Shown here in pieces: positions 1 through 41,567 of a stretch of DNA of 53,677 nucleotides. The DNA comes from a virus: IMG/VR virus record IMGVR_UViG_3300045988_182168, positions 1-53,677 of that record, one strand, 5' to 3'. The position numbers and the translations under genes were made by a program. The notes beneath the pieces were generated by a model, which saw nothing but the letters and a program-made list of their open reading frames with translations, did not search any database and was not told where the DNA came from. Within the stretch, counting starts at the first letter, position 1; each line of letters starts with the position of its first letter.

Positions 1-69
<69 letters not shown>

Positions 70-125
70 TTAATAAAAATTTAATAAATAATGAATAAAT
101 ATCACAATGTTATAAAAAATGTGAT

Positions 126-410
126 GTGTGTATGGCTGATGATTTGGTAATTTTGGCTCAGTTTGTGAAACTGGGAAGATTACGAAAAAAAGTATTCATG
201 GAATTGGCACAAAAAGAAATTTCTCAAATATGTAAAGTAGGAGAAAAGAAAGGGAAGTATTGTACAAGTTCAACTTATCATGCAGTGTATGATTTGATTG
301 ATAAAGGTTTAGTGGAGTATGTTGATCCAGATAGTAAAAGAAGAAAAGAGGTACGTTTAACTGATTTGGGTTATAATGTTTTTGAAAAATTAGATATTGT
401 GTGTTGGTGA
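126..410 (+). CDS. winged-helix (MarR/PadR-like) DNA-binding protein
   Basis: 94-aa ORF. 'STYHAVYDLIDKGLVEYVDPDSKRRKEVRLTDLG' resembles the recognition helix plus beta-wing of wHTH regulators. First gene after the ATT/iteron region. Confidence 0.5.
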   Translation: MCMADDLVILAQFVKLGRLRKKVFMELAQKEISQICKVGEKKGKYCTSSTYHAVYDLIDKGLVEYVDPDSKRRKEVRLTDLGYNVFEKLDIVCW

Positions 411-417
411 GGATATA

Positions 418-660
418 ATGGGTAAAGTAGTTTTTAATATTGTTGAAACTGATTATGATGTTAGTAAGGATGAGGAAAAGTATCAGAAATTCAGGAAAGA
501 TTATCTTGAGAATTTAAGTGTTGGTGTTTGTAGGTTGCAGGAGCAGTATGGTTTGACTAGTTATAGGAGAGAGAAATTTATAAATCGTATCAGGTGTGAG
601 GATCATGTTAGGCGTCGTAGTAATGGTAGGTTTACTGTTTTAGAAAAGGTGGAATCATGA
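418..660 (+). CDS. hypothetical early protein
   Basis: ORF. ATG 418 follows a GGTGAGG SD-like site just after the upstream stop (410). Confidence 0.45.
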   Translation: MGKVVFNIVETDYDVSKDEEKYQKFRKDYLENLSVGVCRLQEQYGLTSYRREKFINRIRCEDHVRRRSNGRFTVLEKVES

Positions 661-839
661 AGGATGTATGGCATGAGGTATTAAGAGATAAGCATGAGAG
701 TTTTAAATGGAGTTTACTTATAGACACGGCAATTGAAACAGTGAGGATGTATAAGCAGGATTATCTGTTAAGTAAGTATGGTGTAGCGGAACCAAGTCAA
801 AGACAACCAGTCCGGAATAAAAAGGAGATCCAAAAATGA
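657..839 (+). CDS. hypothetical early protein
   Basis: ORF with ATGA start/stop overlap with the upstream gene. Confidence 0.45.
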   Translation: MKDVWHEVLRDKHESFKWSLLIDTAIETVRMYKQDYLLSKYGVAEPSQRQPVRNKKEIQK

Positions 840-1083
840 GTTGTAATGATATACTTGAAAAATTAGAAAAAGAAGGAATAATATCTGTGAAGGAGTAATT
901 GATTCTTATCTGTTATGTAAACATGCTGAAGAATTATTTGGAAAATCATACCTAAAAGAACATAATATAGTGTTGGATGATGATAAAAAAGAAGCAAAGA
1001 TATGTAAAAAAGGAAGTTGATAAAAATGAAAACATTGAAGTTTAAACCGTATTTCTTTGAACCTTTAAGAAGTAGGAAAAAAA

Positions 1084-1368
1084 ATGGCTACAATAAGAAA
1101 ATCTGATAAAGGATTGAAAAAAGGTGACCTTGTAGAATGTTGGTTTGAGGGGACGGGTTTTTGTCTGCTTCGGGTAGTACGGAGAGTTGAACAGGTTAGA
1201 TTTAAAGATTTGAAACATAATCATGCTTGGTTTGAAGGTTATAGGCATGTTGATTTGTTGAAACATGAGTTAAAAAGTATTTATCCAGATATATGTGGGG
1301 ATACTGTTTTGTTTCAGATTATATTTGAAAGACCAACACTACCATTACAACCTTTCAAAATTAAATAG
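1084..1368 (+). CDS. hypothetical early protein
   Basis: 94-aa ORF in the co-oriented gene string. No recognisable motif. Confidence 0.4.
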   Translation: MATIRKSDKGLKKGDLVECWFEGTGFCLLRVVRRVEQVRFKDLKHNHAWFEGYRHVDLLKHELKSIYPDICGDTVLFQIIFERPTLPLQPFKIK

Positions 1369-1381
1369 GAGGATATTGAAA

Positions 1382-1528
1382 ATGAATAATGAAGAAATTA
1401 ATGAATTAACTGCCAAGATTGAGTCTTGTTGGGATGAGAATAATCCTGGTGATGTAAGAAGTTTTGATGAAAGGTTAAAACAGAAGTTAACTCCTGAGGA
1501 GTATGAGTTAATAACAAGTTGGAGATAA
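1382..1528 (+). CDS. small acidic hypothetical protein
   Basis: ATG 1382 preceded by TAGGAGGA. In frame with tracked ORF 1295-1528, whose 5' part overlaps the previous gene. Confidence 0.5.
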   Translation: MNNEEINELTAKIESCWDENNPGDVRSFDERLKQKLTPEEYELITSWR

Positions 1529-1699
1529 TGGGGGGAGAATATAGTATGATGGATGGTTGGGTAGTTTTTAGTGTAAGTGTAATTATTAGTTGTTGTTTAG
1601 TGTTATGTCTTACTGATTTTTTTGATGATTAAGATAGGTTATATTGTAATCAGGAGTTTTTATGAAAGAAGTTAAAAAATACATGGAGGATAAATATGC

Positions 1700-1999
1700 A
1701 TGATTGATGAGAAATTATTACTATATTTTATTAAAACAAGAAGCAGGGAATTTGAAGAACAATCTTTTACTACTTATAAAGAATGCACAGGTAGTTTGAG
1801 AGACATGGAGTATGATGATGTTATAATTCATAGTATTAATCTTCATACTTTGATGCATGTTACTCGTATTCTTAATGAGTTGATTGAAATGATTGAAGAT
1901 GGTAAATTCAACACTTCTGAAAATTCAGTTTCTTGTTGTGGTGGAGAATGTGGAAAAACAATAACTTTAATCTATATGAAAGAGTATATATTAGTTTAA
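1700..1999 (+). CDS. hypothetical early protein
   Basis: 99-aa ORF, GGAGG about 10 nt upstream. Confidence 0.4.
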   Translation: MIDEKLLLYFIKTRSREFEEQSFTTYKECTGSLRDMEYDDVIIHSINLHTLMHVTRILNELIEMIEDGKFNTSENSVSCCGGECGKTITLIYMKEYILV

Positions 2000-2181
2000 G
2001 TAGAACAGTCTCCAATTTTGAATGCATAAATGAAGAATTAAAACAAGAAACCATACATGAAGCATTAAAAAAATCACAAGTAATTAATGAATATGTGAAA
2101 TATCAGGGTAAACTTTTACCTTTTCACATGTTTGTTTTTGAAGTGAAGAAAAACCTACTATCCAAAAATTTAGAAAGATGA
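1933..2181 (+). CDS. hypothetical protein, start uncertain
   Basis: Open frame fills 2000-2181. The tracked start overlaps the previous ORF by 67 nt and there is no clear SD. Confidence 0.25.
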   Translation: MLWWRMWKNNNFNLYERVYISLSRTVSNFECINEELKQETIHEALKKSQVINEYVKYQGKLLPFHMFVFEVKKNLLSKNLER

Positions 2182-2185
2182 TAGG

Positions 2186-2500
2186 ATGTTATTGAAGAAA
2201 ACATTAAATGATCCACAAACAAGATTCTACATCAGCAAATGCAAATACTGTGGCAGAGTATTTATTAAGTTTGAGAATAAAACAGGGTATTGCAGGGAAG
2301 CTTGCAGGACCTGGGCGGTACGTGAGCAGAAAGCAAAGTATCAACAAAAACGTAGGAAATTAATTAATGATGGGGAGTTAATTAGTAATGAGAATAATAA
2401 ATTAGGTACTAGTTATTTATCTAAACATCGGAACAGTAATTTTAATAAAGAGTTGGTTAGTATTCGTAGAGAAGCTAAACGTATAGGTGTGACTTTATGA
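2186..2500 (+). CDS. zinc-ribbon protein with basic tail
   Basis: 'CKYCGRVF...CREACRTW' gives four Cys in two knuckles, followed by a Lys/Arg-rich region. Confidence 0.5.
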   Translation: MLLKKTLNDPQTRFYISKCKYCGRVFIKFENKTGYCREACRTWAVREQKAKYQQKRRKLINDGELISNENNKLGTSYLSKHRNSNFNKELVSIRREAKRIGVTL

Positions 2501-2757
2501 ATAAAAATATTAATAAAATAAAAATATAGATAAATTAAAAGAGTGAGAGTTGAATTATTTATGGATAATTTTAATAGATGTTTGTTAAGTATATTATAAA
2601 ATAATTATTTTGAACTTGCAAATGATTAAATATTGTAATTGTTTATGAAATGATGAATGAACTAAAAGCCATTAATTACAATTGAAAATATGTAATTGTA
2701 TCACATAATCTTCTAAATTCAGTAACTTTAAATTATATTAAATCATATATAATTAAT

Positions 2758-2853
2758 ATGTCATCAAATCGAAATTACAGTCCATTAACTATTAAATTAC
2801 TATTTGGATCTGCTGGTGGGCGTTGTTCGATGTGCAAAACAAAAATAGTCTAA
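2758..2853 (+). pseudogene. 5' fragment of the HNH gene in a different frame (MSSNRNYSPLTIKLLFGSAGGRCSMCKTKIV*)
   Basis: ATG 2758 opens a 31-codon frame. Its 'GGRCSMC' looks like the N-terminal Cys knuckle normally preceding the HNH core found in ORF 2823-3518. The frames overlap in the A-rich tract 2836-2850. Confidence 0.55.
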
Positions 2854-3518
2854 ATGCAACTGAAAATGATGGGGTTGCTCAAATAGGTGAAATAGCACAT
2901 ATTATTGGCTCAAGTGAATATGGACCAAGAGGTGATGGCAACTTTCCAGAAGACAAATTAGATGACTATGAAAATTTAATATTATTATGCCCCTCATGTC
3001 ACAAAAAAATTGATAAACAACCAAATTCTTATTCTCCATCCGGGTTACATGAAATAAAAAGTAATCATGAAAAATGGGTGGATGAACAGTTGGAAGTATC
3101 AAATCTTGAAATTTCTTCAAAAGAATTAGACCTAATAATTAAAAACATTTCTTCTGGAGATTATGAATCTTCATTTTCATTTGAAGAATTTGAGCATATT
3201 GATGTTTCAGATAAAATTGATAAAAATGATTTTAGTAATCAGGTTAAAAGGTTTTTAGATATAGGGCTTATGAAAACATATGAAGTTAAATCATTTGTAA
3301 CCGAGATGGATAAGTTAGATAAAAATTTTATCAATAGATTAAAATCATTTTTTAAAGTTAAGTATTTAGAACTTAAAGAAAAATATGAGGATAATGATGA
3401 AATATTTTTGGAATTATGGAATTATATAAAAAAAGATGCAAATTCATTTATAGAAGAAGCAGCGGCATTATCGGTATTATGTTATATGTTTGAATTATGT
3501 GAGGTTTTTGAAAAATGA
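2823..3518 (+). CDS. HNH nuclease with C-terminal helical domain (effector of ABC-3C-like module), apparently frameshifted at its 5' end
   Basis: 'GEIAHIIGSSEYGPRGD...YENLILLCPSCHKKID' HNH motif. The tracked start is a TTG. The stop overlaps the next gene's start (ATGA at 3515). Confidence 0.7.
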   Translation: MFDVQNKNSLNATENDGVAQIGEIAHIIGSSEYGPRGDGNFPEDKLDDYENLILLCPSCHKKIDKQPNSYSPSGLHEIKSNHEKWVDEQLEVSNLEISSKELDLIIKNISSGDYESSFSFEEFEHIDVSDKIDKNDFSNQVKRFLDIGLMKTYEVKSFVTEMDKLDKNFINRLKSFFKVKYLELKEKYEDNDEIFLELWNYIKKDANSFIEEAAALSVLCYMFELCEVFEK

Positions 3519-3748
3519 TTTTGCCAAACAAATTCCTAGAAGAAAAAGATTCATTATTATATGTTGGAGCATTATTGCTGGATAAATTAGATGTTCCCTC
3601 TTCTGTTTCAGAATTATGGAATCAAGTAAATGATAATAAATCTGTGAACAATTATGAGAGGTTTATTATTACTCTCGACATGTTATATGTTCTTAATTTA
3701 ATCGAACTCAAAAATGATAAAATTAGGAGAATTAATAATGATTCATGA
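3515..3748 (+). CDS. small helical middle component of ABC-3C-like module
   Basis: 77-aa ORF overlapping both neighbours. Size and position match ABC-3C middle components as I recall them. Confidence 0.55.
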   Translation: MILPNKFLEEKDSLLYVGALLLDKLDVPSSVSELWNQVNDNKSVNNYERFIITLDMLYVLNLIELKNDKIRRINNDS

Positions 3749-5444
3749 ATTATATGCTAATAAAAGTAGTTTTAAAAAGATACAGTTTAATAAAGGTATT
3801 AATATAATATTGGCAGAGGGTGATGATAATACTGAAAATTCTAGAAATGGACTTGGAAAAACTACATTAGTACATATAATTCATTTTTGCTTAGGCGGAA
3901 CTCCAAATAAAAAATATTTGCCTGAAGACACATTTAATGATTGGGAATTTACAATTAGCATAGATATATCTAATGAGAAAATTTATGCTAAGAGGTCATT
4001 TAATGAAAAATCAATTATTATTGTTGAAGGAAATTTTAGTAAGTTTCCTTTAAAACCTACTTACTCTGAAGAAAAAGAAATTTATTTTTATACTCTGAAT
4101 GAATGGAAAGAGGTTTTAGGAACTTCATTATTAGGTTTGAAAAATGAAAAGGAATTTAGATTTAAACCTACATTTAGGAAAGTGATTAGTTATTTTATAC
4201 GCAGAGATGAAGATATCAAGAAATCTCCTTTCAAAACAAGTTCTACACATAAAAACATTGATGTAATTGATTGTACAAGTTTTTGTGTGGGTCTTGATTG
4301 GAAATTAATGTCTAAATATAAGGAATATGGAGATGAAATAAAAAGATTAAATGAAAATTTTTCTAACTTAAAGAGTATTCATGGATCAAAAGGGCAGCTA
4401 GTTCCAGAAATGAATAGATTAAAGAAAGACCTAACTAAAATTAAAGAGGATTTAGATAATTACAAAGTTCATGAGTCTTATAGACAAATTGAAAAATCTG
4501 CAGATATATTAAGCAAAGAAATTCAAGAGTTGGTTGAAAAAACTATTTTTTTAAATAAAAAAATTGACATATATGAAGAGTCTATTAAAGAAGAAAATAT
4601 TGATGATATTAATGTAGAAGAGATATATAATGAAATAAATTTTTATTTTCCGGAAAATGTTAAAAAAACATTAAGAGAATCTAAAGAATTTCATAAAAAT
4701 ATAATCTTTAATAGAACTAATTTTTTAAAAACTGAAATCCAATCAATAAAAAATGATTTATCATTAATTAATCAGGAAATTGAAATTAAATCTGATAAAA
4801 AAGCTGGATATATGGATATTTTAAATAATTTTGGAGCTTTAAACGAATATAATAATATGCAAAAATATTATACTGAACAAAAAAGTGAATATGAGTTAAT
4901 TGTAAATATTATCAAGCAATTTGATGAAATTACTAATAAAAAAAATAAATTAAAAGTAAAATTATTAGAGTTAGAATCTAGATTTCAAATCAATTATGAT
5001 GAAAATATAAATCATTTAAATTCTTTAATCGATATTTTTAGTGATAATTCATCTTATTTATATGATGTTCCAGGAGATTTAATTATTGAATGTTCTGAAA
5101 AAGGATTTGAATACAATGTGGATATTCCTAGAATAAATAGTACTGGAAAAACTAAAATGATTGTCTTATGTTATGATTTAATGTTGTTAGAAAATTTTGT
5201 TGGTTATAATTACATAGATTTCTTAATTCATGATAGCAATATTTTTGATGGTGTTGATTCTAGACAATATGCTAGTGCTTTAAATTTAATTTATGAAAAA
5301 ACAACAAAATTTGATATGCAATACATATGTATGTTGAACTCTGATTCTATTCCAGACAATTTAAATTTCAATATTGAAGATCATGTTGTTTTAGAATTGA
5401 ATGACAATTCAATTGAAGGAACATTGTTGGGTTTTGAATTTTAA
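3738..5444 (+). CDS. coiled-coil ABC ATPase (DUF2326-like, ABC-3C ATPase)
   Basis: ATG 3738 after AGGAGA. Walker A 'NGLGKTTL', long heptad-rich middle region, C-terminal 'FLIHDSNIFDGVD' Walker B/D-loop. Confidence 0.75.
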   Translation: MIHELYANKSSFKKIQFNKGINIILAEGDDNTENSRNGLGKTTLVHIIHFCLGGTPNKKYLPEDTFNDWEFTISIDISNEKIYAKRSFNEKSIIIVEGNFSKFPLKPTYSEEKEIYFYTLNEWKEVLGTSLLGLKNEKEFRFKPTFRKVISYFIRRDEDIKKSPFKTSSTHKNIDVIDCTSFCVGLDWKLMSKYKEYGDEIKRLNENFSNLKSIHGSKGQLVPEMNRLKKDLTKIKEDLDNYKVHESYRQIEKSADILSKEIQELVEKTIFLNKKIDIYEESIKEENIDDINVEEIYNEINFYFPENVKKTLRESKEFHKNIIFNRTNFLKTEIQSIKNDLSLINQEIEIKSDKKAGYMDILNNFGALNEYNNMQKYYTEQKSEYELIVNIIKQFDEITNKKNKLKVKLLELESRFQINYDENINHLNSLIDIFSDNSSYLYDVPGDLIIECSEKGFEYNVDIPRINSTGKTKMIVLCYDLMLLENFVGYNYIDFLIHDSNIFDGVDSRQYASALNLIYEKTTKFDMQYICMLNSDSIPDNLNFNIEDHVVLELNDNSIEGTLLGFEF

Positions 5445-5535
5445 TACATATCTTTTTAATATGTTCTATAAATGCTCTTGATTTTTAGATATTGTCTTTT
5501 TTTATCACTTATTAATAACCCTTATTTTTTATTTT

Positions 5536-5570
5536 TTTTTCTATTTTTCCACTTTATATTATTGAAGAGG
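5536..5570. repeat. 35-bp direct repeat copy 1 (contains TATA-like TTTATATT)
   Basis: tttttctatttttccactttatattattgaagagg, identical to 6998-7032. Confidence 0.9.
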
Positions 5571-5636
5571 AAAAAAATTTTTTTCATAATTATATGTGGG
5601 AGGATATTATTGGATGCTAATACATTTTTTAAAAAC

Positions 5637-5762
5637 ATGAAACATGCAGAAATAGAGTGTCCTGTTTGTGAAAAACTGAAAAAAGATTGCAAAAAGGTTT
5701 ACTATGATGAGTGGCATGAGGAGTATGTTTGTAAAAAATGTGGATTAGTAATTAAAAAATAA
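5637..5762 (+). CDS. small zinc-ribbon protein
   Basis: 'CPVCEKL...CKKCGLVI' gives two CxxC knuckles. The 5' part of tracked ORF 5472-5762 is poly-Phe low complexity over the repeat, so ATG 5637 (or TTG 5610 after GGGAGG) is preferred. Confidence 0.45.
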   Translation: MKHAEIECPVCEKLKKDCKKVYYDEWHEEYVCKKCGLVIKK

Positions 5763-6220
5763 ATTAAGTAGAGTATTTATAAACTCCAGTTCATATTTTA
5801 ATATATATTCGCCTTTAAATTATTAAATCTTATAATTTCTACATTCAAATAAAAAAAAATACATGTTTATTTAGCTTCAATAAATAATTTATCCAAAATA
5901 TGAGATTATAAATTTTTTATTATCTCTCTATTAATCATTAGTAAAAAAATATTCAGTTTTTTTGGGTTTCCTCCAAAATAAAGTGTTAATCATAATTGTG
6001 GTAAGAATTTTAAACACGTTTAATTAATATTCTTTCAGTTGAATTTATGGAAAAATATTTTTATCTTCTTCAAAAAAAAGAGGCATGTATCTCAGTTTAG
6101 AATTAGTGTAAATCATGAAAAAGAGAAAAATGTTTGTAATAAAAAGTAGGATGGGGGATAAAAATTGGGATATTTTTTTCGTTATTTTTTTTTCTTTTTG
6201 ATTTACATTTTATAATAAAT

Positions 6221-6296
6221 GTTGGTAATAGCTATTTTTTTTATTGTGATATTAGTAACCACTCAAAAGTTGAGGGTGCAATTCCCTCCACCAACA
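6221..6296 (+). other. degenerate tRNA-like element (acceptor stem plus T-arm only)
   Basis: 76 nt. GTTGGT/ACCAAC acceptor pairing and a perfect T-arm GAGGG-TGCAATT-CCCTC. The D and anticodon regions are AT-rich and do not fold. Confidence 0.5.
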
Positions 6297-6306
6297 ATCC
6301 AAATAT

Positions 6307-6381
6307 GGGTGGATAGTATCAATCTGGTAATATGTATGGCTCCAGACCATAGGATGCAGGTTCAAATACCTGTTTCACCCA
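6307..6381 (+). tRNA. tRNA-Trp (anticodon CCA), no encoded CCA end
   Basis: Hand fold: acceptor GGGTGGA/TTCACCC, D-stem GTAT/ATAT, anticodon stem TATGG/CCATA with loop CTCCAGA, T-stem GCAGG/CCTGT. The T-loop appears to be 8 nt with a 4-nt variable loop. Confidence 0.7.
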
Positions 6382-6412
6382 TTCAATAATTTTTTTTTTA
6401 GGAGATGAAAAA

Positions 6413-6583
6413 ATGACTTTTAATAACACAACATTGGCAATAGTCGGAATAATAATTATAGGAATTTTAAGTACATATATGGGGAATAATGAATTGGCAG
6501 CAGTAGCTTTAGGAGGAATTGTAGGTTGGATTTCAAGAAGTTATTCTAATTCTGGAGGGATAGTTAATGATCCAAAATGTTAG
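6413..6583 (+). CDS. small membrane protein (56 aa)
   Basis: ATG 6413 after AGGAGA. 'LAIVGIIIIGILSTY' and 'AAVALGGIVGWI' are hydrophobic segments. Below the ORF-track size cutoff. Confidence 0.45.
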   Translation: MTFNNTTLAIVGIIIIGILSTYMGNNELAAVALGGIVGWISRSYSNSGGIVNDPKC

Positions 6584-6872
6584 TCAAGTAAGAGATTTGC
6601 AGGATAAATATTGTAAACAGGAATCTCGTATAAGTAAATTGGAAGCAAGTGATCAGTTTCAGAATAAGCAATTGGAAAAGTTAATTAAGAAGATGGATGA
6701 AAGTATTGCAATTCAAACAAGGCAGTTGGCTCTTCAGGAAGAACAGGCTAATGATGAGAATCAATTATTTACTATCCGTAGTGGAGTGTTCATAGCGTTT
6801 ATTGGTGCGTTGATAGTGTTTTTGATTGATGGGTTTCAGTTTGTAGTTGTGAATTTTTTAAAATTAATATAG
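6567..6872 (+). CDS. coiled-coil protein with C-terminal transmembrane anchor
   Basis: 101-aa ORF. Heptad-like N-terminal half, then 'GVFIAFIGALIVFLIDGFQFVVVNFL'. Confidence 0.5.
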   Translation: MIQNVSQVRDLQDKYCKQESRISKLEASDQFQNKQLEKLIKKMDESIAIQTRQLALQEEQANDENQLFTIRSGVFIAFIGALIVFLIDGFQFVVVNFLKLI

Positions 6873-6997
6873 TGTTTAACTTTTATGATAAAATTATAGT
6901 ATTTTGTTCACTATGAAAATAAAAAACCCCGTGTTTTAAATTTTAGTGTTTAATAATTACTAGTTTTTATTATAACATTATTCAATTATAACCTATC

Positions 6998-7032
6998 TTT
7001 TTCTATTTTTCCACTTTATATTATTGAAGAGG
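6998..7032. repeat. 35-bp direct repeat copy 2
   Basis: Identical to 5536-5570. Confidence 0.9.
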
Positions 7033-7220
7033 GATACATATTAATTAAGAGAAAAACGAGTAAAATAATGTTTTTTTTTATATTTTATTTCCTTTTAAAT
7101 AATAACAATTCTCATTCTTATACATTTTTATACATAATATAAAAAAACATTCATAATCTCTTCTTAATATTCTCTCTTATTTTATAATAATTTTTACAAA
7201 ATTTCATAAAAAAATTCTCT

Positions 7221-7263
7221 AAACATTTAATGTTTCACTGAAACATTTCAGTGAAACGTTTCA
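7221..7263. promoter_or_regulatory. nested palindromes on GTTTCA/TGAAAC half-sites upstream of the terminase genes
   Basis: GTTTCACTGAAA-ca-TTTCAGTGAAAC (7232-7257) is a perfect 12-bp inverted repeat. Flanked by AAACATT-t-AATGTTT and TGAAACGTTTCA. Confidence 0.6.
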
Positions 7264-7312
7264 AAATTATATCATTACATTACAAAAAAAAGTTAACTGG
7301 ATGTGCACGAAC

Positions 7313-7864
7313 ATGGCAAGAAAAAATAAAGTAGAATCCAGCCCACATTATAATGAAATAATCAAACGATTATCATGTGGAGAATCTGGAAGAAGTGTTT
7401 CTCGTTGGCTGGAAAACACATATAATGAAAAGATTTCTTTTGCTGCTTTAAATAGATACAAATCAAAAAATATTAAAATAGAAGATAGAGTTGAAGCTGA
7501 ACTGAATAAAAGACAAGAACTTAAAAATAAAACGGAAAATGCAGTTCAAAGTCAAGCAGATAAAATTGAAGCTGCTGAAGACACTATGAGTATTGTTGCA
7601 CAAACTATTGCAGATAATATGGAGGGTGTTGCTAAAGTAGCTAGTGAATTACCAACTATTTTTTTGCGGGCTAAACAAAATGCTAGGGATCCAAATTCGA
7701 AAACTGAATGGAAAGATGTTGCAAATATTTCTATTCAAGCTAATAAGATATATAATGATTACTTCAAACATGAAGAAGATAATATTGAAATTAATATTAA
7801 TGAAGGGTTTGGAGAATTAGCAGATGCCATCAAAAAATCGAGGGAAATATATAAAGCCCATTAA
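7313..7864 (+). CDS. terminase small subunit (putative, HTH)
   Basis: Lies immediately upstream of, and overlaps, the large terminase gene. 'SGRSVSRWLENTY' is HTH-like, followed by a coiled-coil middle. Confidence 0.5.
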   Translation: MARKNKVESSPHYNEIIKRLSCGESGRSVSRWLENTYNEKISFAALNRYKSKNIKIEDRVEAELNKRQELKNKTENAVQSQADKIEAAEDTMSIVAQTIADNMEGVAKVASELPTIFLRAKQNARDPNSKTEWKDVANISIQANKIYNDYFKHEEDNIEININEGFGELADAIKKSREIYKAH

Positions 7865-9137
7865 AAGTTTTGAGTATGGTGTATTCAGTAAGAAAGCATT
7901 AGATTTTTTGGATAATAGTGATGTATTCCTGAACATTCTGCATGGGTCAGTAAGGTCAAGTAAAACAACCAATGCTAATGTCAGATGGTTAAACTTCCAA
8001 GCAAATAGCCCTCATGATAAATTTCTCCTGACAGGTAAAACAAGAGATACTATTGAACGGAATGTTATTGAAGATCTAATCAAAATGGTTCATGGTAAAT
8101 TATATTATGACTATGATAAATATGATGGTTACTTGGACATTGGAGATAAAAGAACTTATATTGTTGGATTCAATGATGAGGGAGCAACTGCTAGAATACA
8201 AGGTATGACTGTTGCAGGATGGTATGGTGATGAAGCTGCCACAGCACCAGAATCAGCCATCAAAATGGCAATGTCGAGGTGTAGTCTTTCAGGGGCACAA
8301 ATATTCTTGACAATGAACCCTGACAGTCCTTATCATTATATTTATAAACAATACATCAATAATCCTGAATTACGAAAGAAAGGTATTGCTAAAGTATGGC
8401 ATTTCACTCTAGAGGATAATCCGAACTTAACTCCAGGATATATTGATAATCTGAAAGCATTATACAGTGCAAGCAAGCTTCAATATGACAGATATATTCT
8501 TGGAAGATGGGTTATTGCTGAAGGAGCTATTTATGATAAATTTGTTGAATCTGAAAACACTTTCAGATATAGGCCTAAACTTCATGATATTAATATTTGC
8601 TGTGATTATGGAGTTAGCACAGTCACCACGTTTGGTGTAATGGGTATCAAGAGAGATGTTGTTGAAGGAAATTCATATTACTTGTTAGATGAAACATATT
8701 ATGATGCTGAAGTTGAAGGAGTTACTCAATCTGATGATGAAAGAGTGGATGATATTGTGACCTTACAAAACCAGTATAAACTTGATAGTAATAATACATT
8801 GTATTTACCTCACGATGCAGCATCATTAAAGACTGCCTGTGAAAAAGATAAAAGAATCAGGATGGAAGTTAAAACATACACTCCTGATGTTAATGCAGAT
8901 ATTGCAACAATACAAAGCCTCATAGCTACCCGTAGATTCAAGATACATGTGAACTGTAAGAACAGTATTGAACAAGCTCAAACTTACTGTTGGGATAAAC
9001 AATCCCAACAACGTGGAGAAGATAAACCATTAAAACAAGATGATCACTGTCCCGATATGTGGCGTGGTGGAATCTGTGGACCAATGAAAACAGCTAAAAA
9101 ACAAATTTATCATGCACCACGGAGAATTAAATTATGA
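7824..9137 (+). CDS. terL: terminase large subunit (PBSX/Terminase_3-like)
   Basis: Walker A-like 'HGSVRSSKTT', Walker B 'WYGDEAA', C-terminal nuclease-like region. Size and position fit. Confidence 0.85.
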   Translation: MPSKNRGKYIKPIKSFEYGVFSKKALDFLDNSDVFLNILHGSVRSSKTTNANVRWLNFQANSPHDKFLLTGKTRDTIERNVIEDLIKMVHGKLYYDYDKYDGYLDIGDKRTYIVGFNDEGATARIQGMTVAGWYGDEAATAPESAIKMAMSRCSLSGAQIFLTMNPDSPYHYIYKQYINNPELRKKGIAKVWHFTLEDNPNLTPGYIDNLKALYSASKLQYDRYILGRWVIAEGAIYDKFVESENTFRYRPKLHDINICCDYGVSTVTTFGVMGIKRDVVEGNSYYLLDETYYDAEVEGVTQSDDERVDDIVTLQNQYKLDSNNTLYLPHDAASLKTACEKDKRIRMEVKTYTPDVNADIATIQSLIATRRFKIHVNCKNSIEQAQTYCWDKQSQQRGEDKPLKQDDHCPDMWRGGICGPMKTAKKQIYHAPRRIKL

Positions 9138-32456: not shown

Positions 32457-33133
32457 TTAATGTGAATGGAGAATATTATTTCAAGGTACACTTGCAATCG
32501 ATGTTCCTAAATGAAATATTGGAAATCAAAAGGACTAATCTTATTACTTTTCGTGGTGAAGCATTCTTCATGAATAGATGGTTGAATGAAGAATTTGAAC
32601 CAATAAAATATATTTGCCTGGGAAAAGGAACTGCTAACCCTCGTAAATCTGATGAAAAGTTATCCATGCAAACAGTACAGAAAACCTGTAAAACACAGGT
32701 GGATTTAATAAACAAACAAATTATTTTATCGGCAGATTTCACAGCTTTGGAAATACAAGATACTACTGAAATTGGCGTTAAAACTGCATGTGATAGATTA
32801 GTAAGTCATGATTCATATACAATAATTTCATCAATTTTAGATAATGTTACAAGTACTGTTCATTTAGATTACTATTTCAAAATGGGAACAGGTAGTGTAC
32901 GTGGAAATTGGAAAGTATCTGATGAAGAAAATAATGTTTATCGGATTTATGAACCAAATACTGTTGTAGGAGTAATTGAAAACAATACGAATAGTGGATA
33001 TGTAAGGAAAACAAGTATTGCAGAATTAACTCCTGGAAGCTATTACTATAATAAAAATACTAAGGATTTATATATTAAAAATAGTTCAAATTCAGATCCT
33101 AATAATGATGAAATAATTGTTCAAACAATATGA
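32453..33133 (+). CDS. hypothetical tail protein
   Basis: ATGA-coupled 226-aa ORF. Confidence 0.4.
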   Translation: MINVNGEYYFKVHLQSMFLNEILEIKRTNLITFRGEAFFMNRWLNEEFEPIKYICLGKGTANPRKSDEKLSMQTVQKTCKTQVDLINKQIILSADFTALEIQDTTEIGVKTACDRLVSHDSYTIISSILDNVTSTVHLDYYFKMGTGSVRGNWKVSDEENNVYRIYEPNTVVGVIENNTNSGYVRKTSIAELTPGSYYYNKNTKDLYIKNSSNSDPNNDEIIVQTI

Positions 33134-33145
33134 GGGAGATAAATT

Positions 33146-35443
33146 ATGGCAAACTGTCCTGCAAAATATAAAAACCTTGGTTTAACCAGTTTCGATGAAC
33201 AAAAAGACATCACTGTTCAAATGCTAAGGCAAATATGTATGAATGATGAATGGTTGAAACAAGAAATAGAAAAAGTGAAATATGAAACCCCTGCAGTAAA
33301 CAGAAAACGATTCAGTCCTATTGCAGTAGATTCAAACAATAGTTATGGGTACAAAATAAGTAGTAATAATGATGTTGTTTTTGACTCTTCAACAAGTAAA
33401 GAAGTAGAAATTGATTTCAGTGATTTAAGTTTGATTGATACAGCAAAAACTACATGTGCTATTGAATCTATTATTGATAATGGTCAAATAATCAATCAAG
33501 CAAAAGTAAAAAAACAAACTACTTCATCTGTAGATAAATCAACTAGAAACTATAGTCCATGGGCTGTGAAAGATTCATCAGGGAATATTATTGGTGGAGA
33601 CATGATAGCTAATGAACATTGGTATGTTGGTTTTGACCGAAATAGACATTATGAAACAAGACCTAATTGGTTGGAAAATCAATTAAACAATGAAATACCT
33701 AGTGTTGGGAGGGCTCAAACTTTTGAAGCTAAAAAAACGGGTTTACTTGAATCTGTTGTGTTGAATATTAAAGTTAATGAAGGTCAAGATAAATATAATA
33801 CTGCTTCACCACTAATTGTTCAAATAAGAAAAACAATCGATAAAGATGGAGTATTATATCCTGAAGAATTGGCTTGCGGGTATGATGGAAAATATTCAGT
33901 CCTTGCCGAGCAAGAAATAAGATTTATCAATACTAGTCCAAATATTGTTAGTATACCATTTGATCATCCATGTACTGTTGAAAAAGGTCAAACTTATGCT
34001 ATTGTAGTTTTATCTCCATTAAGTCATCCAACACACACCTATTGGGTAGGTGGTTGGAACAAACATTGTCATGCTGATGTTTATACAGAAGGGGATGCAT
34101 TTTTTACTTTCAACAATGGTATGACTTGGATAAAGTATGGGAAAGATGATGATGTGGAATATCATCAGGGAAAATATGCTCCGCAGGATTTTGCATTTCA
34201 AGCACATATTAGGGAGTTTAAAACTGGTTATATTACTAATACTGATGAATGGTTATATTTGAAACCTATATTCAGTAATCCTGTTAAAAGGGTTAGGATA
34301 AATGCAATTGATACTGGAGAAGCAAGTGATGGTAATCTTCAATTGGAATATTGGGGTAGTAATGATGGGAGAAATTGGACAAAATTCACTAATAATCAAT
34401 TATATTTCAATATTCCTAATTGTATGACTTTTATTAAGGTTCGTATGAGAACTAAGATTAATGATACTCCCATCATCGAGTATATGCGTGTAGAATTAGA
34501 GACAGATATTCCTGAACAGATGTATGTGAGAACGCATTATTACTTCCCAAAAACAAGTGCAATGTTGGGAGCTAATGCGTGGGCTAAAGTAAATGCCCCT
34601 TTTAAAGTAGAACCGTCCGTTTCTTGTGAAGCGGAAATTATTAGAAACTGCGAAGTAATGGAGCATTTTGTAATCATAGAACCTAAAGACATACAAAACT
34701 TTACATGGTTAAATGAGATAGATGCAATTAAAGTCACAGGTAAAACGAATAGTCAAAATCGCAAATATTTAATTGATCATCCAAGTGCTGTGGAAGCATT
34801 AAAAGAACATCAAATATATGTTACTGGATACATGGAAAATGAAGTTTATGTTCCTGGATTCTTTGATGGGTTTGAATTCACATCATCTCCAGCATATCCA
34901 ATAATAGAATGTACACTACAACCAATCACGGGTAAAACAAAAATTTATGGTGAATGGTATGATTTCACATTTGATTATGAGAATGATAAATTAACATTTT
35001 TCAGTAATGTTCTTCAAACAATTGCCCCGGGAACATTAACTATTAAATATAATCCTTTATTCATTGACCACTTGGCAAATGAAGAAATGCCATTAATATT
35101 AGATTATTTCAAAGAAACAATACAAATCACAGAAGATATGTTAAATAATCGTAAGATTCCATTAAGGGCTCCGGCATTAGATCCGCTTAGAGATATATTT
35201 TTGAATGGTGAAGAAATCATAGAAGACAATGATTTCACAATGGATTATACTACTAATGAATTATGTTTCCCTGTAGTGAACATTGATGATCAAGCTACAA
35301 TATTATCATTAAATGATATTCTTGAAGTAGTGTACACTCCAAGTCTGGATGATGCGGGAATAAGTATTGGATATTATGCCACACGTGAGAATATTAGAAA
35401 ACAATGTTATATAAAACCAAATTACATGGAATTCAAAACATAG
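33146..35443 (+). CDS. large tail fibre / receptor-binding protein (putative)
   Basis: 765-aa ORF in the fibre block. No recognisable catalytic motif. Confidence 0.45.
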   Translation: MANCPAKYKNLGLTSFDEQKDITVQMLRQICMNDEWLKQEIEKVKYETPAVNRKRFSPIAVDSNNSYGYKISSNNDVVFDSSTSKEVEIDFSDLSLIDTAKTTCAIESIIDNGQIINQAKVKKQTTSSVDKSTRNYSPWAVKDSSGNIIGGDMIANEHWYVGFDRNRHYETRPNWLENQLNNEIPSVGRAQTFEAKKTGLLESVVLNIKVNEGQDKYNTASPLIVQIRKTIDKDGVLYPEELACGYDGKYSVLAEQEIRFINTSPNIVSIPFDHPCTVEKGQTYAIVVLSPLSHPTHTYWVGGWNKHCHADVYTEGDAFFTFNNGMTWIKYGKDDDVEYHQGKYAPQDFAFQAHIREFKTGYITNTDEWLYLKPIFSNPVKRVRINAIDTGEASDGNLQLEYWGSNDGRNWTKFTNNQLYFNIPNCMTFIKVRMRTKINDTPIIEYMRVELETDIPEQMYVRTHYYFPKTSAMLGANAWAKVNAPFKVEPSVSCEAEIIRNCEVMEHFVIIEPKDIQNFTWLNEIDAIKVTGKTNSQNRKYLIDHPSAVEALKEHQIYVTGYMENEVYVPGFFDGFEFTSSPAYPIIECTLQPITGKTKIYGEWYDFTFDYENDKLTFFSNVLQTIAPGTLTIKYNPLFIDHLANEEMPLILDYFKETIQITEDMLNNRKIPLRAPALDPLRDIFLNGEEIIEDNDFTMDYTTNELCFPVVNIDDQATILSLNDILEVVYTPSLDDAGISIGYYATRENIRKQCYIKPNYMEFKT

Positions 35444-35454
35444 GAGCTGATTAA

Positions 35455-36270
35455 ATGGAATTTGAAACAAATGTTACAAGTAGAGATGATGAAGGCCATA
35501 TTATTGGTGCTGATGTGAATTTTTATGATGACTCTGGAAATCGTGTTCATCAAGTAGTAATCTGTGAAGAACAACAATTGCAAGATTTGGTTGATGCAAT
35601 TGAAGAATTAGATACACGTTATGTAAGACCTGATGAATTAAAGAATATACTTGCTAATGCTGCTGAAGATACTGTGATTAATGCTACAAAATTAAATGAT
35701 TTGAATAGTGCTTCTTTTGCATTAAGGAATCATAATCATGATTCAAAATATTGTGGGAAATATCATGCTTCAACTGCAAATGAGTATGGTGTAGGGAATC
35801 AATCAGAGTATGGGCATGTGAAAACAAGAAATAATTTAACAGCACCTAATTTCATAGGAGGTGAAGCTTTAGCTGCTTATCAAGGCACACTTTTGAATCA
35901 GCGTTTAGCTTCTGTGGAATCTTCTTCAGACGAACTTGCTGAAAAATATTATCGGAATAGTTTACGTATCAAAATAGGCAGGTGGAGTGATAATCAAGGT
36001 GAAGATGGAACTAGAATTCAAATAGCGCACGGTTCGGGTAATGGTATTTATGCCCAATTATATTGTGATAAACCAGGGTTTAAGATAAATAATAGAGATT
36101 TGATTCTTGTAATAAATGGGGTGCCATATGTAAGAACAACAGATAATAATGGTAAATCAGAAAAACTAACAATAAAATTGGATAAAGGAACTTACCTCAT
36201 GTCTGCATTTAGTAGGGGCCATGATGGAGTAAATTCTTCCTTTACTCAGAAAATTGTTGAGGTATTATAA
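35455..36270 (+). CDS. tail fibre protein
   Basis: 271 aa. 'LRNHNHDSKY' HxH motif shared with the downstream fibre genes. Confidence 0.45.
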   Translation: MEFETNVTSRDDEGHIIGADVNFYDDSGNRVHQVVICEEQQLQDLVDAIEELDTRYVRPDELKNILANAAEDTVINATKLNDLNSASFALRNHNHDSKYCGKYHASTANEYGVGNQSEYGHVKTRNNLTAPNFIGGEALAAYQGTLLNQRLASVESSSDELAEKYYRNSLRIKIGRWSDNQGEDGTRIQIAHGSGNGIYAQLYCDKPGFKINNRDLILVINGVPYVRTTDNNGKSEKLTIKLDKGTYLMSAFSRGHDGVNSSFTQKIVEVL

Positions 36271-36312
36271 AATTTAATCTTAATTATTAAGGAGTGGGGG
36301 GTATGATATTTT

Positions 36313-36927
36313 GTGATAGAAATACAATTAAAAGCTGAAAATCAGCGCCTCAAAAGAACAGATAAAGAACCAATTGTAGGATATTCCAAAAATATAATCA
36401 AAGCAAAATTCACAATCGAAGGAGACATTTGGAAGGATGTAGATAAATTTGCTATTTTCACAGATGCATTTGACAACAAAACAACCGTACATTTAGGGCC
36501 TGAATCTAATTGTAATTGTATTGTTCCATCATCATGTTTGAAAACTAGTTTTTTTAAAATAACCGTTTATGGTGGGAATTTAATCCTTACAAATGCAATT
36601 ACTATTCCTTTAGTGGAAAGTGAGTATTCTAGAAAACATCACAGTAATTATGACGATTGTAGTAAAGATATTTTTGTAGAAATCTTTCAGCATATAAACT
36701 CTAAAGTAGATAATATTCTTTTTGATGAGGGGTGCCTTCATATTTTTAGTAATGGAGTCCTTATTGATTCAGTTTATTTACCATTTCTAAATGAAGTTCA
36801 AGTACATGAATATGTTAAGGAACAGATAGAAGGGTACATTACATATAATCAATTGAATAAATTTCTCAAAGAACAAGGCTATATAAAAAGTGTTTATATG
36901 ATTGGTGATGAAATAGTATTCAAATAA
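36313..36927 (+). CDS. hypothetical fibre-module protein (GTG start)
   Basis: The frame opens at 36307 and GTG 36313 is its only start, after GGAGTGGGGGG. Confidence 0.4.
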   Translation: MIEIQLKAENQRLKRTDKEPIVGYSKNIIKAKFTIEGDIWKDVDKFAIFTDAFDNKTTVHLGPESNCNCIVPSSCLKTSFFKITVYGGNLILTNAITIPLVESEYSRKHHSNYDDCSKDIFVEIFQHINSKVDNILFDEGCLHIFSNGVLIDSVYLPFLNEVQVHEYVKEQIEGYITYNQLNKFLKEQGYIKSVYMIGDEIVFK

Positions 36928-36958
36928 AAAAAAATTTTTTAAAAGGAGTATAATAATT

Positions 36959-37867
36959 ATGCCGGAAACAAACCAAAACTCAGAAATAAGATTAAATATG
37001 GGGCAGTGGTTAGCTTCAAAAAACAAAGAAGATAAAAGCAATAAAGTAACCAGTATTTCTGCAGCATCTACTGACACCCAATATCCTAGTGCAAAATGCA
37101 TGCATGATGAATTAAAAAATAAAGCTGATGCAGAGGATATACCAACAAAAACATCTGCCTTAGCCAATGATGGTGATGGGTCCAATCCTTTTATTACTCA
37201 ACATCAAGACATATCTGGTAAAGAAGATAAAAGCAATAAAGTTAGTAAGTGGAGTACAACACCTACTAACAATAATTTCCCATCAGAAAAATTAGTTAAA
37301 GATAGTTTAAATAATAAAGCAGATTCATCCAGCCTTGCTACTGTCGCAACAACTGGAGATTATGATGATTTAAGTAACACACCAACAATCCCTACTGTTG
37401 TTGATACAGTTCAAAATAACAATAATAATGCTGTAACATCTAATGCAGTTTATGATGCATTAGAATTAAAAGCTAATGCAGGACATACACATTCTACTAG
37501 TGAAGTATTAGACCCTGTAGCACATCCGAATATTGGGACTGCTGCAAATGCAACCCAATCAACAATTAATAGGGCTGTAGATAATACAATACAATCTCTA
37601 TTGCATGTTGATATGATAGTGCCTGTTGAAACTAAACCAACACCTAATAAATCAACTATGAACAGGTTATATCTTGTTCCAGAAACTGATCCTCAAACAG
37701 ATGATGAGTATCAGGTATGGTGTACTATTCGCAGCGGAACTGAGGGTAATTATCAGTATGATTGGAAAAAATTAGATCCTGTTAGATTGGACTTGTCAGG
37801 GTATGTGCGTAAATCAGATGTTAGTTTAGCTATTGAAAATGATGAGATTGTATTGAATTTAGGTTAA
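36959..37867 (+). CDS. tail fibre protein
   Basis: Repeated 'EDKSNKV' and 'Y/FPS.K' fibre-like motifs plus 'AGHTHSTSE'. Confidence 0.55.
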   Translation: MPETNQNSEIRLNMGQWLASKNKEDKSNKVTSISAASTDTQYPSAKCMHDELKNKADAEDIPTKTSALANDGDGSNPFITQHQDISGKEDKSNKVSKWSTTPTNNNFPSEKLVKDSLNNKADSSSLATVATTGDYDDLSNTPTIPTVVDTVQNNNNNAVTSNAVYDALELKANAGHTHSTSEVLDPVAHPNIGTAANATQSTINRAVDNTIQSLLHVDMIVPVETKPTPNKSTMNRLYLVPETDPQTDDEYQVWCTIRSGTEGNYQYDWKKLDPVRLDLSGYVRKSDVSLAIENDEIVLNLG

Positions 37868-37953
37868 TATCTAATAAAATTTAATTTAAATTCTTTTTAT
37901 TTTATTTTTTTTAATTTTGTATATATTATTTTTTTTTTAGGAGTTGATTTATT

Positions 37954-39057
37954 ATGGCAGAGATAAGAAAAACAAATATTTTTAAGTATTTAAAAACAAA
38001 ATATAACAATGTAGCGTCTATAGTTAAGATGAATGGTACTCAATCAGCAGGGAGTAGTGATTATATTGCAAGGGCAGATCATGTGCATCCTGTGGATACT
38101 TCAAGAGCAGCATCTAATCATAGTCATGGTAGTTTGGTTAATGATGGGGCATTGAACAGTGACATTACATCAGTTAACAAAGTTGCAGTAACGGATGCAA
38201 CAAATAAGTTGAAAACAATCAGTAAGTTACCATTGAATAACGTAACACATCAAGACATTTCAGGTAAAGCAAATGTAAATCATAGTCATGGTTCTGCATC
38301 TTCATCAGCAAATGGTTTTTTGTCTAAAGAGGATAAATCTAAACTTGATGGTATTGCTACAAACGCTAATAAAACAGTTGTTGATAGTTCATTGAGTAGT
38401 TCATCAACTAATCCTGTACAGAATAAAATCGTGACTAATGCGTTGAATGGTAAAGCTAACAGTAGTCACAGTCACAGTATCAGCAATATTACTAATCTTC
38501 AATCATCATTGGATAGTAAATCAGAAACAGGGCATACTCATGATGACCGTTATTATACTGAAACAGAAATGAATACTAAGTTGAATGGTAAAGCTAACAG
38601 TAGTCACAGTCACAGTATCAGCAATATTACTAATCTTCAATCATCATTGGATAGTAAATCAGAAACAGGGCATACTCATGATGACCGTTATTATACTGAA
38701 ACAGAAATGAATACTAAGTTGAATGGTAAAGCTAACAGTAGTCACACACATACTGCATCTCAAATATCTGACTTAACAGTATCAACACATATACTTGCAA
38801 ACGGAGCAAGACTATACAAATACGGAAAAATCGTATTGGCAGTATTTAATAACTACCAATATTCAGGAAAAACACCATATGTGTGGACAGATTTATTTAA
38901 TATACCTTCAGCTTACAGACCAATATCTACTGACAATATATATGGACATATGTTAGGTACAAATGGGCAAATTGTAGCAGGGTCTAATAAAATTGAACTA
39001 TATCCTCCACAATCAAGCGGGGGTCTTTTTGGACATATTCTTTGGGTAACATCTTAA
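37954..39057 (+). CDS. tail fibre protein with multiple HxH motifs and an internal perfect tandem duplication
   Basis: 'DHVHP', 'NHSHG' x2, 'SHSHS' x2, 'GHTHDD' x2, 'SHTHT'. Confidence 0.6.
   Translation: MAEIRKTNIFKYLKTKYNNVASIVKMNGTQSAGSSDYIARADHVHPVDTSRAASNHSHGSLVNDGALNSDITSVNKVAVTDATNKLKTISKLPLNNVTHQDISGKANVNHSHGSASSSANGFLSKEDKSKLDGIATNANKTVVDSSLSSSSTNPVQNKIVTNALNGKANSSHSHSISNITNLQSSLDSKSETGHTHDDRYYTETEMNTKLNGKANSSHSHSISNITNLQSSLDSKSETGHTHDDRYYTETEMNTKLNGKANSSHTHTASQISDLTVSTHILANGARLYKYGKIVLAVFNNYQYSGKTPYVWTDLFNIPSAYRPISTDNIYGHMLGTNGQIVAGSNKIELYPPQSSGGLFGHILWVTS
38443..38746 (+). repeat. 138-bp in-frame tandem repeat, 2.2 copies, 100 percent identical
   Basis: Units start at 38443, 38581 and 38719. 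Compared by eye base by base. Confidence 0.9.
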
Positions 39058-39091
39058 TAATTTAAATATAGATAAATTTATATAAAATATT

Positions 39092-40156: not shown

Positions 40157-40449
40157 TTTTTTTTTATTTCCAATAAAGAAAACTATTCTTTTTTTTAACT
40201 ATCTAATATATTTTTTTTTAAACAAAGATAATTCTTCAATGAGGATATCTTTTTTTTATCATATTTAATTTATTTTTTTAAGTTAGCATCATTTTTATTT
40301 TAAACTACTTTAAAAAATGATTTGGAAGGGGGGGGGAAGAAAGTGTAATAACAGTACCTTTTGTTTGAATGATGAATGGATTATTTTTAAATATTTTTTT
40401 TTAAAATGCAACAGAATAAATACTATTTTTTTTTAAAGGAGCGTAAAAC

Positions 40450-41376: not shown

Positions 41377-41381
41377 GAATT

Positions 41382-41567
41382 ATGGCAGAAATGAAAGAAG
41401 GTTTAAAAGAAACATTAGATAATTTACAACAAGAATGTAATAAATTGTATGAAGAAGATGGTTTGATAGATGAAGTTATGGATTTGCAATTGGTAATTAA
41501 TTCATTGAGAAACAAGTTTGATTTAGTTGATGAATCAGAACAGGTATATGATGAATTTGTACAATAA
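41382..41567 (+). CDS. small acidic coiled-coil protein
   Basis: ATG 41382 just after the pei stop. 61 aa. Confidence 0.4.
   Translation: MAEMKEGLKETLDNLQQECNKLYEEDGLIDEVMDLQLVINSLRNKFDLVDESEQVYDEFVQ

Follow-up and report, generated by a model that had tools for sequence, protein, structure and literature searches.

The ABC-three-component (ABC-3C) systems, which combine an ATPase, a middle component and an effector with a C-terminal domain (CTD) (Krishnan et al. 2020; Pfam), are now equated in the literature with type II Lamassu. In short Lamassu, LmuB is an SMC/Rad50-like ATPase of ∼600 amino acids (aa) with a Walker B motif of the form hhhhD[Q/S/T/E], and HNH is an effector type specific to the short systems. 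The mechanism of Cap4-type Lamassu has been solved by cryo-EM and biochemistry: an LmuB2-LmuC complex sequesters monomeric LmuA, and LmuA, once freed, tetramerises into an active nuclease; the solved systems respond to DNA ends or replication intermediates. Here we analyze a three-gene locus at positions 2758–5444 (plus strand) of IMG/VR record IMGVR_UViG_3300045988_182168, a viral sequence of 53,677 nucleotides (nt) that we refer to, at its full length, as the window. The triad is an ABC-3C module of the short type II Lamassu kind and thus a further member of an already known family. We consider it probable that this operon, which corresponds to the PADLOC candidate system PDC-M68, is cargo of a Methanobrevibacter smithii virus, that its intact form is by homology an anti-invader system, and that the copy in the window is effector-null. 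An initial annotation, made from the window's sequence alone, had proposed ABC-3C membership and regarded the mechanism of such systems as not experimentally resolved, a statement that the work on the Cap4-type systems has made outdated.

All three Pfam families specific to ABC-3C were matched above threshold, and the assignment of the triad follows from this result. The effector matched CTD10 (PF20275; 37.2 bits against a cutoff of 28.1) together with HNH_2 (26.1 bits) and HNH (24.8 bits), both above cutoff; the middle component matched MC6 (PF20293; 49.7 bits against a cutoff of 27.2) and MC7 (39 bits); and the ATPase matched DUF2326 (PF10088; 108 bits, E 4e-31, cutoff 28.7), the family that the initial annotation had named for it. 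Scores of this size show that the ORFs are not chance ones. The locus therefore has the ATPase, the middle component and the CTD-bearing effector of an ABC-3C system, with the effector split by a frameshift in the window. PADLOC lists PDC-M68 among its untested candidates, and adjacent genes of the locus matched both of its models, PDC-M68A (208.7 bits for the effector fragment encoded in the window) and PDC-M68B (502.1 bits over the full length of the ATPase). The ATPase was also matched by the PADLOC LmuB models (39.7 and 39 bits; E 6e-11 and 1.5e-10), and the middle component had no PADLOC match. The PHROG matches of the triad were to 37652, 6259 and 5467, phrog_6259 being the middle component. 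None of the three proteins had a family-level match in NCBIfam; RefSeq names the M. smithii proteins 'ABC-three component system protein', 'ABC-3C middle component 6' and 'DUF2326 domain-containing protein'. We found no paper linking Lamassu or ABC-3C to Methanobrevibacter or to archaeal viruses, so that the earlier view that none had been described on a methanogen virus agrees with the literature, the automated RefSeq naming of the proteins aside. The published analysis of Methanobrevibacter smithii tailed virus 1 (MSTV1) mentions HEPN toxin-antitoxin loci, antitoxins and methyltransferases, and neither ABC-3C nor Lamassu.

The operon is compact, as first described. Its three plus-strand open reading frames (ORFs) lie in the window at 2823–3518, 3515–3748 and 3714/3738–5444. 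ATGA at 3515–3518 is common to the effector stop and the middle-component start, preceded by a GTGAGGT ribosome-binding site (3499–3505), and the middle-component end and the ATPase start overlap by 11 nt (3738–3748). An ATPase start at 3738 is backed by an AGGAG ribosome-binding site (3725–3729) and by the conserved 'MI' N-terminus of its homologues. About 20 nt 5' of the effector ATG lies a TATA-like box, TTTAAATTATAT (2727–2738, plus strand), a possible archaeal promoter giving a leaderless transcript, and past the ATPase stop an oligo-T tract (5521–5550, plus strand), within which the insert ends on the right, is a likely archaeal terminator; both signals were read from the sequence. A scan for sigma-70 promoters and intrinsic terminators returned 36 sites against 32 expected and 0 terminators, and is uninformative for an archaeal virus.

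The third gene (3738–5444, plus strand) encodes a 568-aa Rad50/SMC-like ABC ATPase of the DUF2326/YydD family that resembles short LmuB. The motifs seen initially are in place: an N-terminal Walker A ('RNGLGKTT', residues 36–43; 3843–3866), a long helical middle (approximately residues 188–442 in the AlphaFold2 model, with coiled-coil arms at ∼4299–5063) and a C-terminal Walker B and D-loop (FLIHDSNIFDGVD, residues 495–507; Walker B 'FLIHDS' at 5220–5237). The Walker B LIHDS, like the size of the protein, is that of a short LmuB, and H498, D499 and S500 are invariant among homologues. The AlphaFold2 model (mean predicted local distance difference test score, pLDDT, 87.9) has a split nucleotide-binding head and long helical arms. 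Its best fold match in the PDB (Foldseek) was Bacillus subtilis YydD (9a6c_A, E 6.5e-29, TM-score 0.63), followed by an Smc head, Salmonella LmuB (9hqu/9hqx, E ∼1e-13; 9hqu_A, 5e-13), an LmuAB-DNA complex and many Rad50s. A tblastn search of the ATPase against 50,697 GenBank phage records gave no match. The middle component (3515–3748, plus strand) is a 77-aa, LmuC-like protein.

In more than 300 near-identical contigs, the intact effector gene, 762 nt long, starts with the ATG at 2758 and specifies a protein of 253 aa; the intact start was also read from an IMG/VR contig of 98.8% identity (L002) and from ten contigs of ENA (L003–L012). The intact protein spans positions 3–251 of the 253-position PDC-M68A profile at 232.1 bits. 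Its residues ∼8–112 are homologous to the HNH domain of SPARHA (9om4, E 2e-22) and to Cap5 of the cyclic-oligonucleotide-based antiphage signaling system (CBASS; E 8e-12 and weaker), and this homology places the intact nuclease in the Cap5/SPARHA HNH clade. When modelled (pLDDT 79.8), the intact effector can be superposed at 2.6 Å on the Cap5 tetramer in its activated form. The SPARHA paper reports that the clade is activated by tetramerisation through an N-terminal helix, and also notes the clade on ABC-3C effectors; by its clade membership, the present effector would be activated by release and tetramerisation. The C-terminal helical domain had a sole match, the C-terminal domain of YydB (9a6c_B, 143 columns, root-mean-square deviation 3.5 Å, E 0.04). 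In the family alignment C23, H48, N73, C78, H82 and D86 are invariant, C26 is nearly so, and the C-terminal tail FELCEVFEK is strongly conserved. The intact allele has H48, N73, H82, C23/C26/C78/C81 and, in the model, helix 9–19.

The window allele lacks a T after position 2850 (deletion site 2850–2851, plus strand), reading GTCTAAAT where relatives read GTCTTAAAT, and GTCTAAATG against GTCTTAAATG in L002–L012. Because of this missing T, the frame opened by the ATG at 2758 ends at TAA 2851–2853 after 31 codons, and the remainder of the gene lies in the -1 frame. The 5' fragment (2758–2853, plus strand; MSSNRNYSPLTIKLLFGSAGGRCSMCKTKIV, ending …GGRCSMCKTKIV*) carries the N-terminal helix and the first HNH CxxC. 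The 3' fragment (2832–3518, plus strand; 228 aa from GTG 2832, or 231 aa from TTG 2823) holds the HNH catalytic core (∼2890–3092) and the CTD10 docking domain (∼3135–3512), and its PDC-M68A match begins at profile position 32. Since the helix and the first zinc-binding CxxC are split off on a 31-aa peptide, the window copy is probably nuclease-dead, an effector-null allele: the catalytic core is retained, and by analogy with SPARHA and Cap5 the loss of helix 9–19 and of C23/C26 should abolish both the integrity of the zinc site and tetramerisation. The middle-component and ATPase genes are intact. The initial annotation, which had called ORF 2823–3518 an HNH effector, was thus right about the motifs and had only the 3' part of a gene that starts at 2758; it overlooked the frameshift, and the working abortive-infection module that it proposed is probably not what the window copy is.

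The same deletion is present in ENA contig ERZ27263473:k119_27198, which is 100% identical across 10.3 kb, and likewise in the 53,677-bp JGI contig and in the NCBI third-party annotation (TPA) records. The viral lineage of the window was seen in 6 contigs only, and all may therefore come from one sample. Programmed -1 frameshifting and an A-run error, both at ACAAAAATAG (2839–2848), were each considered and ruled out, as the difference from the relatives is the missing T at 2851, a canonical slippery heptamer is absent, and the frame is simply open in more than 300 contigs. In the TPA records the 31-aa product is deposited as DAY53149.1 (window 2758–2850) and the larger fragment as DAY53150.1 (2823–3515). 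The names given there to the two fragments, 'RECOMBINATION ENDONUCLEASE VII' and 'AcrIIC3 protein', are misnomers; the latter wrongly implies an anti-CRISPR and probably derives from a match to an HNH-containing PDB complex.

The cassette is accessory cargo, a moron, and not a core viral function. The whole insert, comprising the leader, the three genes and the terminator region, occupies 2528–5533 (plus strand, 3.0 kb), its borders being set by siblings with an empty or an alternatively filled site. In L105, window position 2527 is joined to 5534 with 3 nt between (L105 5623–5625), and L101, L103 and L107 carry a ∼583-bp alternative insert between ∼2534 and ∼5523 (L101 7348–7930). L101 lacks the cassette and has a large terminase (TerL) 100% identical to that of the window. 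MSTV1 has ∼560 bp at the site (L001 4617–5177) and no counterpart of window 2393–5585. The site is thus a three-state hot spot in near-identical viruses: empty, filled with the ∼0.58-kb alternative, which has no long plus-strand ORF in a six-frame view, or filled with the 3.0-kb cassette. Among the 21 IMG/VR relatives that have the upstream 104-aa gene and enough downstream DNA, the cassette was present in 1 and absent from 20, a distribution that, with its absence from MSTV1, bears out the moron status suggested for it. GC content also deviates, at 23.8% in 2393–5585 against 30.3% in the rest of the window, and the inferred expression signals described above accompany the genes. No terminal inverted repeats and no clear target-site duplication were found at the borders. 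Transposon-like mobility was considered and ruled out on the borders, the repeats there being AT-rich chance matches.

The cassette is a self-contained, horizontally mobile three-gene operon. In a different methanogen virus, a triad 87% identical to it is flanked by a Mu-F-like head gene and the capsid gene (L013 5020–7710; L014 3454–6144), and the same cassette has thus landed at unrelated sites in different viruses. A further triad (51% identity) has TBP, topoisomerase and FEN1 genes as its neighbors in an archaeal chromosome, and another relative comes from the assembly of a rumen Methanobrevibacter genome (L018). In three copies at 100%, ∼87% and ∼50% identity, all three genes have diverged equally, and the triad is one co-evolving unit. 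Ratios of nonsynonymous to synonymous substitution (dN/dS) of 0.17 for the effector, 0.08 for the middle component and 0.13 for the ATPase, at dS ∼0.5, indicate purifying selection. The exact 77-aa middle component occurs on 348 contigs (663 index blocks); cassette-bearing contigs reach 1.95 Mb, which identifies integrated proviruses, and the full-length 253-aa effector is kept in ∼95% of contigs.

More distantly, the ATPase has at least 547 relatives (one genome per species) in many bacterial phyla and several archaea, the latter including Methanobrevibacter, Methanobacterium, Thermococci and, by protein search, Methanoplanus limicola. Among the 80 best relatives in reference genomes, a ∼75-aa ORF lies directly 5' of the ATPase in 76, and 73 of these 76 ORFs are homologous to the middle component. 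An adjacent effector ORF was found in 65 relatives, every one with the CTD (65 of 65), whereas the N-terminal domain is HNH in 52 and of other kinds in 13; a shared CTD with varying N-terminal domains is the modular effector-swap pattern that defines ABC-3C/Lamassu. In a set of cyanobacterial relatives (L037–L039, L044, L050, L051, L054, L070 and L094) the protein in the effector position is ∼210 aa long and keeps the CTD; its N-terminus is charged, coiled-coil-like and without HNH, resembling the published 'effector-less' short-Lamassu clade.

The intact form is most likely, by analogy, a DNA-structure-sensing, nuclease-releasing system for abortive infection or superinfection exclusion. Its trigger, its sequestration and release, its stoichiometry and its defense phenotype would, by analogy with Lamassu, Cap5 and SPARHA, be as follows. 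A dimer of the Rad50-like ATPase with the 77-aa middle component would hold one effector monomer by its CTD10 domain, preventing self-association of the HNH domain. The ATPase/middle-component head would then bind DNA of abnormal structure from an incoming replicon, for example its ends or the intermediates of its replication, upon which the effector would be freed and its N-terminal helices would drive HNH tetramerisation. The active nuclease would introduce double-strand breaks, abort the infection and so protect the lysogen population and with it the provirus.

Several points weigh against this reading. We found no experiment on the HNH/DUF2326 subtype in the literature. A profile of the ATPase reached LmuB among PDB sequences at just E 0.04, and the effector CTD had no significant match to solved LmuA (E 3); with sequence similarity to LmuB this weak and no match to LmuA, the mechanism is carried over by analogy. 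The Walker B glutamate is replaced by serine, and ATP turnover may therefore be slow or absent. It is conceivable that the 1-bp deletion reflects a read-level error of a single sample. A tailed virus makes DNA ends of its own during replication and packaging and could thereby trigger its own cassette, a difficulty on which the series of knock-outs may bear. Finally, the effector is broken in the window and in at least five other lineages, so the module could be dispensable or costly rather than beneficial.

This last point deserves closer attention. Six independent effector lesions were verified at the nucleotide level, all within the first 250 nt (the HNH domain): the ΔT at nt 94 (codon 32) of the window, Y55* in L002, a ΔA at nt 125 (codon 42) in L137, a 10-bp deletion at codon 73 in L136, an added A at codon 83 in L135 (a 173-kb contig) and a 5' deletion in L131/L132 (two samples). 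The 77-aa middle component and the 568-aa ATPase are intact in all six lineages. Lesions in the ATPase amount to one verified (L007) and one more that is likely (P0058); the resulting enrichment in the effector (p ∼0.01) comes from a rough hand-calculated binomial with unequal ascertainment between the two genes and is suggestive only. Several effector-null alleles are on virus-sized (∼54 kb) contigs, in a set of contigs that is small and non-randomly chosen. One reading of this pattern, which we put forward tentatively and think doubtful, is that the cassette is in conflict with its own carrier: an intact Lamassu would sense the replication or packaging intermediates of the virus itself, free replication would be confined to effector-null variants, and an intact copy would be the sign of a quiescent provirus. 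If true, such self-conflict would make a natural system for how a virus-borne Lamassu separates self from non-self. The retained core of ATPase and middle component, with or without the CTD, might also have a nuclease-independent role.

The lesion in the window might instead mark simple decay, the frameshift making the window effector a pseudogene and leaving an intact middle component and ATPase with no role here. The frameshift at codon 32, the independent lesions in other lineages (one of them in the ATPase, L007) and the location in a hot spot of cargo gain and loss are all as decay would have it. Yet neither the middle component nor the ATPase is broken in the window or in any of the six effector-lesion lineages checked, ∼95% of contigs have a full-length effector, and dN/dS is well under 1 in all three genes, and we regard a decaying remnant as quite unlikely; it would in any case concern the window copy only and be compatible with an anti-invader function of the family.

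Repeated loss of the nuclease with its partners kept is also what a costly toxin would produce, and the cassette could be an addiction or selfish-maintenance module in which the sequestered nuclease punishes loss or silencing of the provirus. The analogy of a toxic nuclease held inactive by its partners fits such a module, and viruses of the MSTV1 type already have toxin-antitoxin-like loci in hypervariable regions. However, what triggers the solved Lamassu systems is DNA ends or replication intermediates and not the loss of a partner, the DNA-sensor-type Rad50 head and coiled coil are conserved under purifying selection, and no antitoxin of differential stability is evident; we therefore hold addiction to be very unlikely. 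A role in viral DNA metabolism, whether in Rad50/SbcC-like recombination and repair (like T4 gp46/47) or as an HNH accessory for terminase packaging, is most improbable, for although the matches of the ATPase model include phage 'recombination endonuclease subunit'/Rad50-like proteins of BFVD (E ∼1e-16) and Rad50/Mre11 complexes of the PDB, and the cassette lies ∼1.9 kb 5' of a small-terminase-like ORF (7301–7864) and 2.4 kb 5' of the large terminase gene (7824), it is missing from siblings with identical TerL and from the isolated, infectious MSTV1, its effector is knocked out in the apparently complete window genome and several more, cellular chromosomes carry the triad with no viral genes close to it and with a swappable effector N-terminal domain, the YydD/DUF2326 match (E 6.5e-29) is far above the viral Rad50-like match, there is no Mre11-type phosphoesterase partner, and the HNH domain groups with the Cap5/SPARHA immune clade. 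The preferred account remains a short type II Lamassu/ABC-3C operon carried as viral cargo.

The carrier is a temperate tailed virus of Methanobrevibacter smithii that has its early region in common with MSTV1. The window is a mosaic in which 417–2392 and 43203–49147 match MSTV1 at 92–96% identity and 33105–41640 is 85.5% identical to a methanogen virus, Caudoviricetes sp. vir080 (Methanobacteriales); the terminase/portal/head region (7824–∼33000) had no megablast match to either. All large ORFs are on one strand. An (ATT)n microsatellite forms both contig ends (1–69 and 53609–53677) as an exact 69-nt terminal overlap, and the contig is therefore probably a circular, complete genome of ∼53.6 kb that the assembler broke inside the trinucleotide repeat.

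Several neighboring features were noted. Directly past the cassette, the product of ORF 5472–5762 has a C-terminal TFIIB-type zinc ribbon (Pfam 25 bits, slightly under the cutoff of 29) that is kept in MSTV1 and every relative, and may be a viral transcription factor. At 5536–5570 and 6998–7032 stand the two identical copies of a 35-nt direct repeat, TTTTTCTATTTTTCCACTTTATATTATTGAAGAGG, with a TATA-like box inside; its first copy begins 3 nt past the right border of the cassette, 5' of the zinc-ribbon ORF, and its second is 5' of the small-terminase region. The repeat is kept in relatives and, from its sequence and positions, looks like a repeated viral promoter element. A viral tRNA-Trp (anticodon CCA) is encoded at 6306–6382 (plus strand), ∼860 nt past the cassette (ARAGORN; Rfam 44.7 bits), and was the only hit of an Rfam scan of 1–9000; ORF 6219–6389, which overlaps it, is probably spurious. 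In one provirus (L009 8744–10279, minus strand) a DDE transposase gene of an IS element (511 aa) lies ∼800 nt past the cassette, between the zinc-ribbon region and the terminase genes. At the far end of the window, 43203–49147 is 95.6% identical to MSTV1 1–5219, annotated there with a XerC-type recombinase, DNA-binding proteins, a HEPN-domain protein (putative toxin-antitoxin) and Orc1/Cdc6; going by that annotation, it would be a second conflict-type locus of the same genome.

To our knowledge, Lamassu has been studied almost entirely in bacteria. The present locus places Lamassu/ABC-3C of the HNH subtype on proviruses of the dominant methanogen of the human gut, in contigs that number hundreds across gut metagenomes, as an example of defense cargo on an archaeal virus and a plausible factor in virus-virus competition within the gut archaeome; a 2025 survey had found Lamassu in just seven archaeal genomes. 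No new kind of system is revealed. Because empty-site, intact and effector-null alleles all occur naturally, controls for studies of function and cost are already at hand.

The locus was compared with the known systems closest to it. MSTV1 shares the backbone (92–96% identity in the early, integrase and Orc1/Cdc6 regions) and, like the window, carries accessory conflict genes in variable regions of a gut methanogen virus; it lacks the cassette, the site being occupied by ∼560 bp of other sequence. PDC-M68 of PADLOC-DB v2 matches with high scores at full length (232 bits between the intact effector and model A, 502 bits for model B), unlike the locus in being a two-model computational candidate without a middle-component model. 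Cap5 and the HNH-APAZ protein of SPARHA share with the intact effector the HNH clade, the N-terminal helix followed by a CxxC...CxxCH zinc finger and, as predicted for the effector, control of the nuclease by oligomerisation. Their partners differ: in those systems a SAVED domain binding cyclic nucleotides, or an Argonaute binding guide and target, and here an ABC ATPase with a middle component, engaged through CTD10.

The B. subtilis YydB-YydC-YydD system (PDB 9a6c, an integrative YydD-YydB model), for which we found no functional study in the literature, provides the best fold match of the ATPase, both ATPases being members of the DUF2326 family (named 'YydD' by JGI), and the effector CTD is similar to the domain through which YydB touches YydD in 9a6c. 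It differs in that identity is just 19% and the N-terminal domain of YydB is not HNH. We take that domain to be a metallophosphoesterase. The comparison with short Lamassu was made to LmuA-LmuC-LmuB, to Vibrio cholerae DdmABC/Lamassu Vc-Cap4 and to Salmonella LmuACB (PDB 9hqu/9hqx). In contrast to these, the window effector is HNH and not Cap4, the ATPase is of the DUF2326/YydD type and not DUF3732 and is 12–14% identical to solved LmuB, the middle component has 77 aa, the carrier is an archaeal virus, and PADLOC v2 files the system as candidate PDC-M68 and not as Lamassu. The two are alike in their three-gene architecture, in which a small middle component and a Rad50/SMC-like ATPase of ∼570–600 aa accompany an effector that kills through its N-terminal domain and docks through its C-terminal one; in the Walker B hhhhD[S] and, as read from the sequence by eye, the absence of a CxxC zinc hook; in having HNH among the listed effectors; and in the ATPase, which both the LmuB hidden Markov models and the LmuB fold match.

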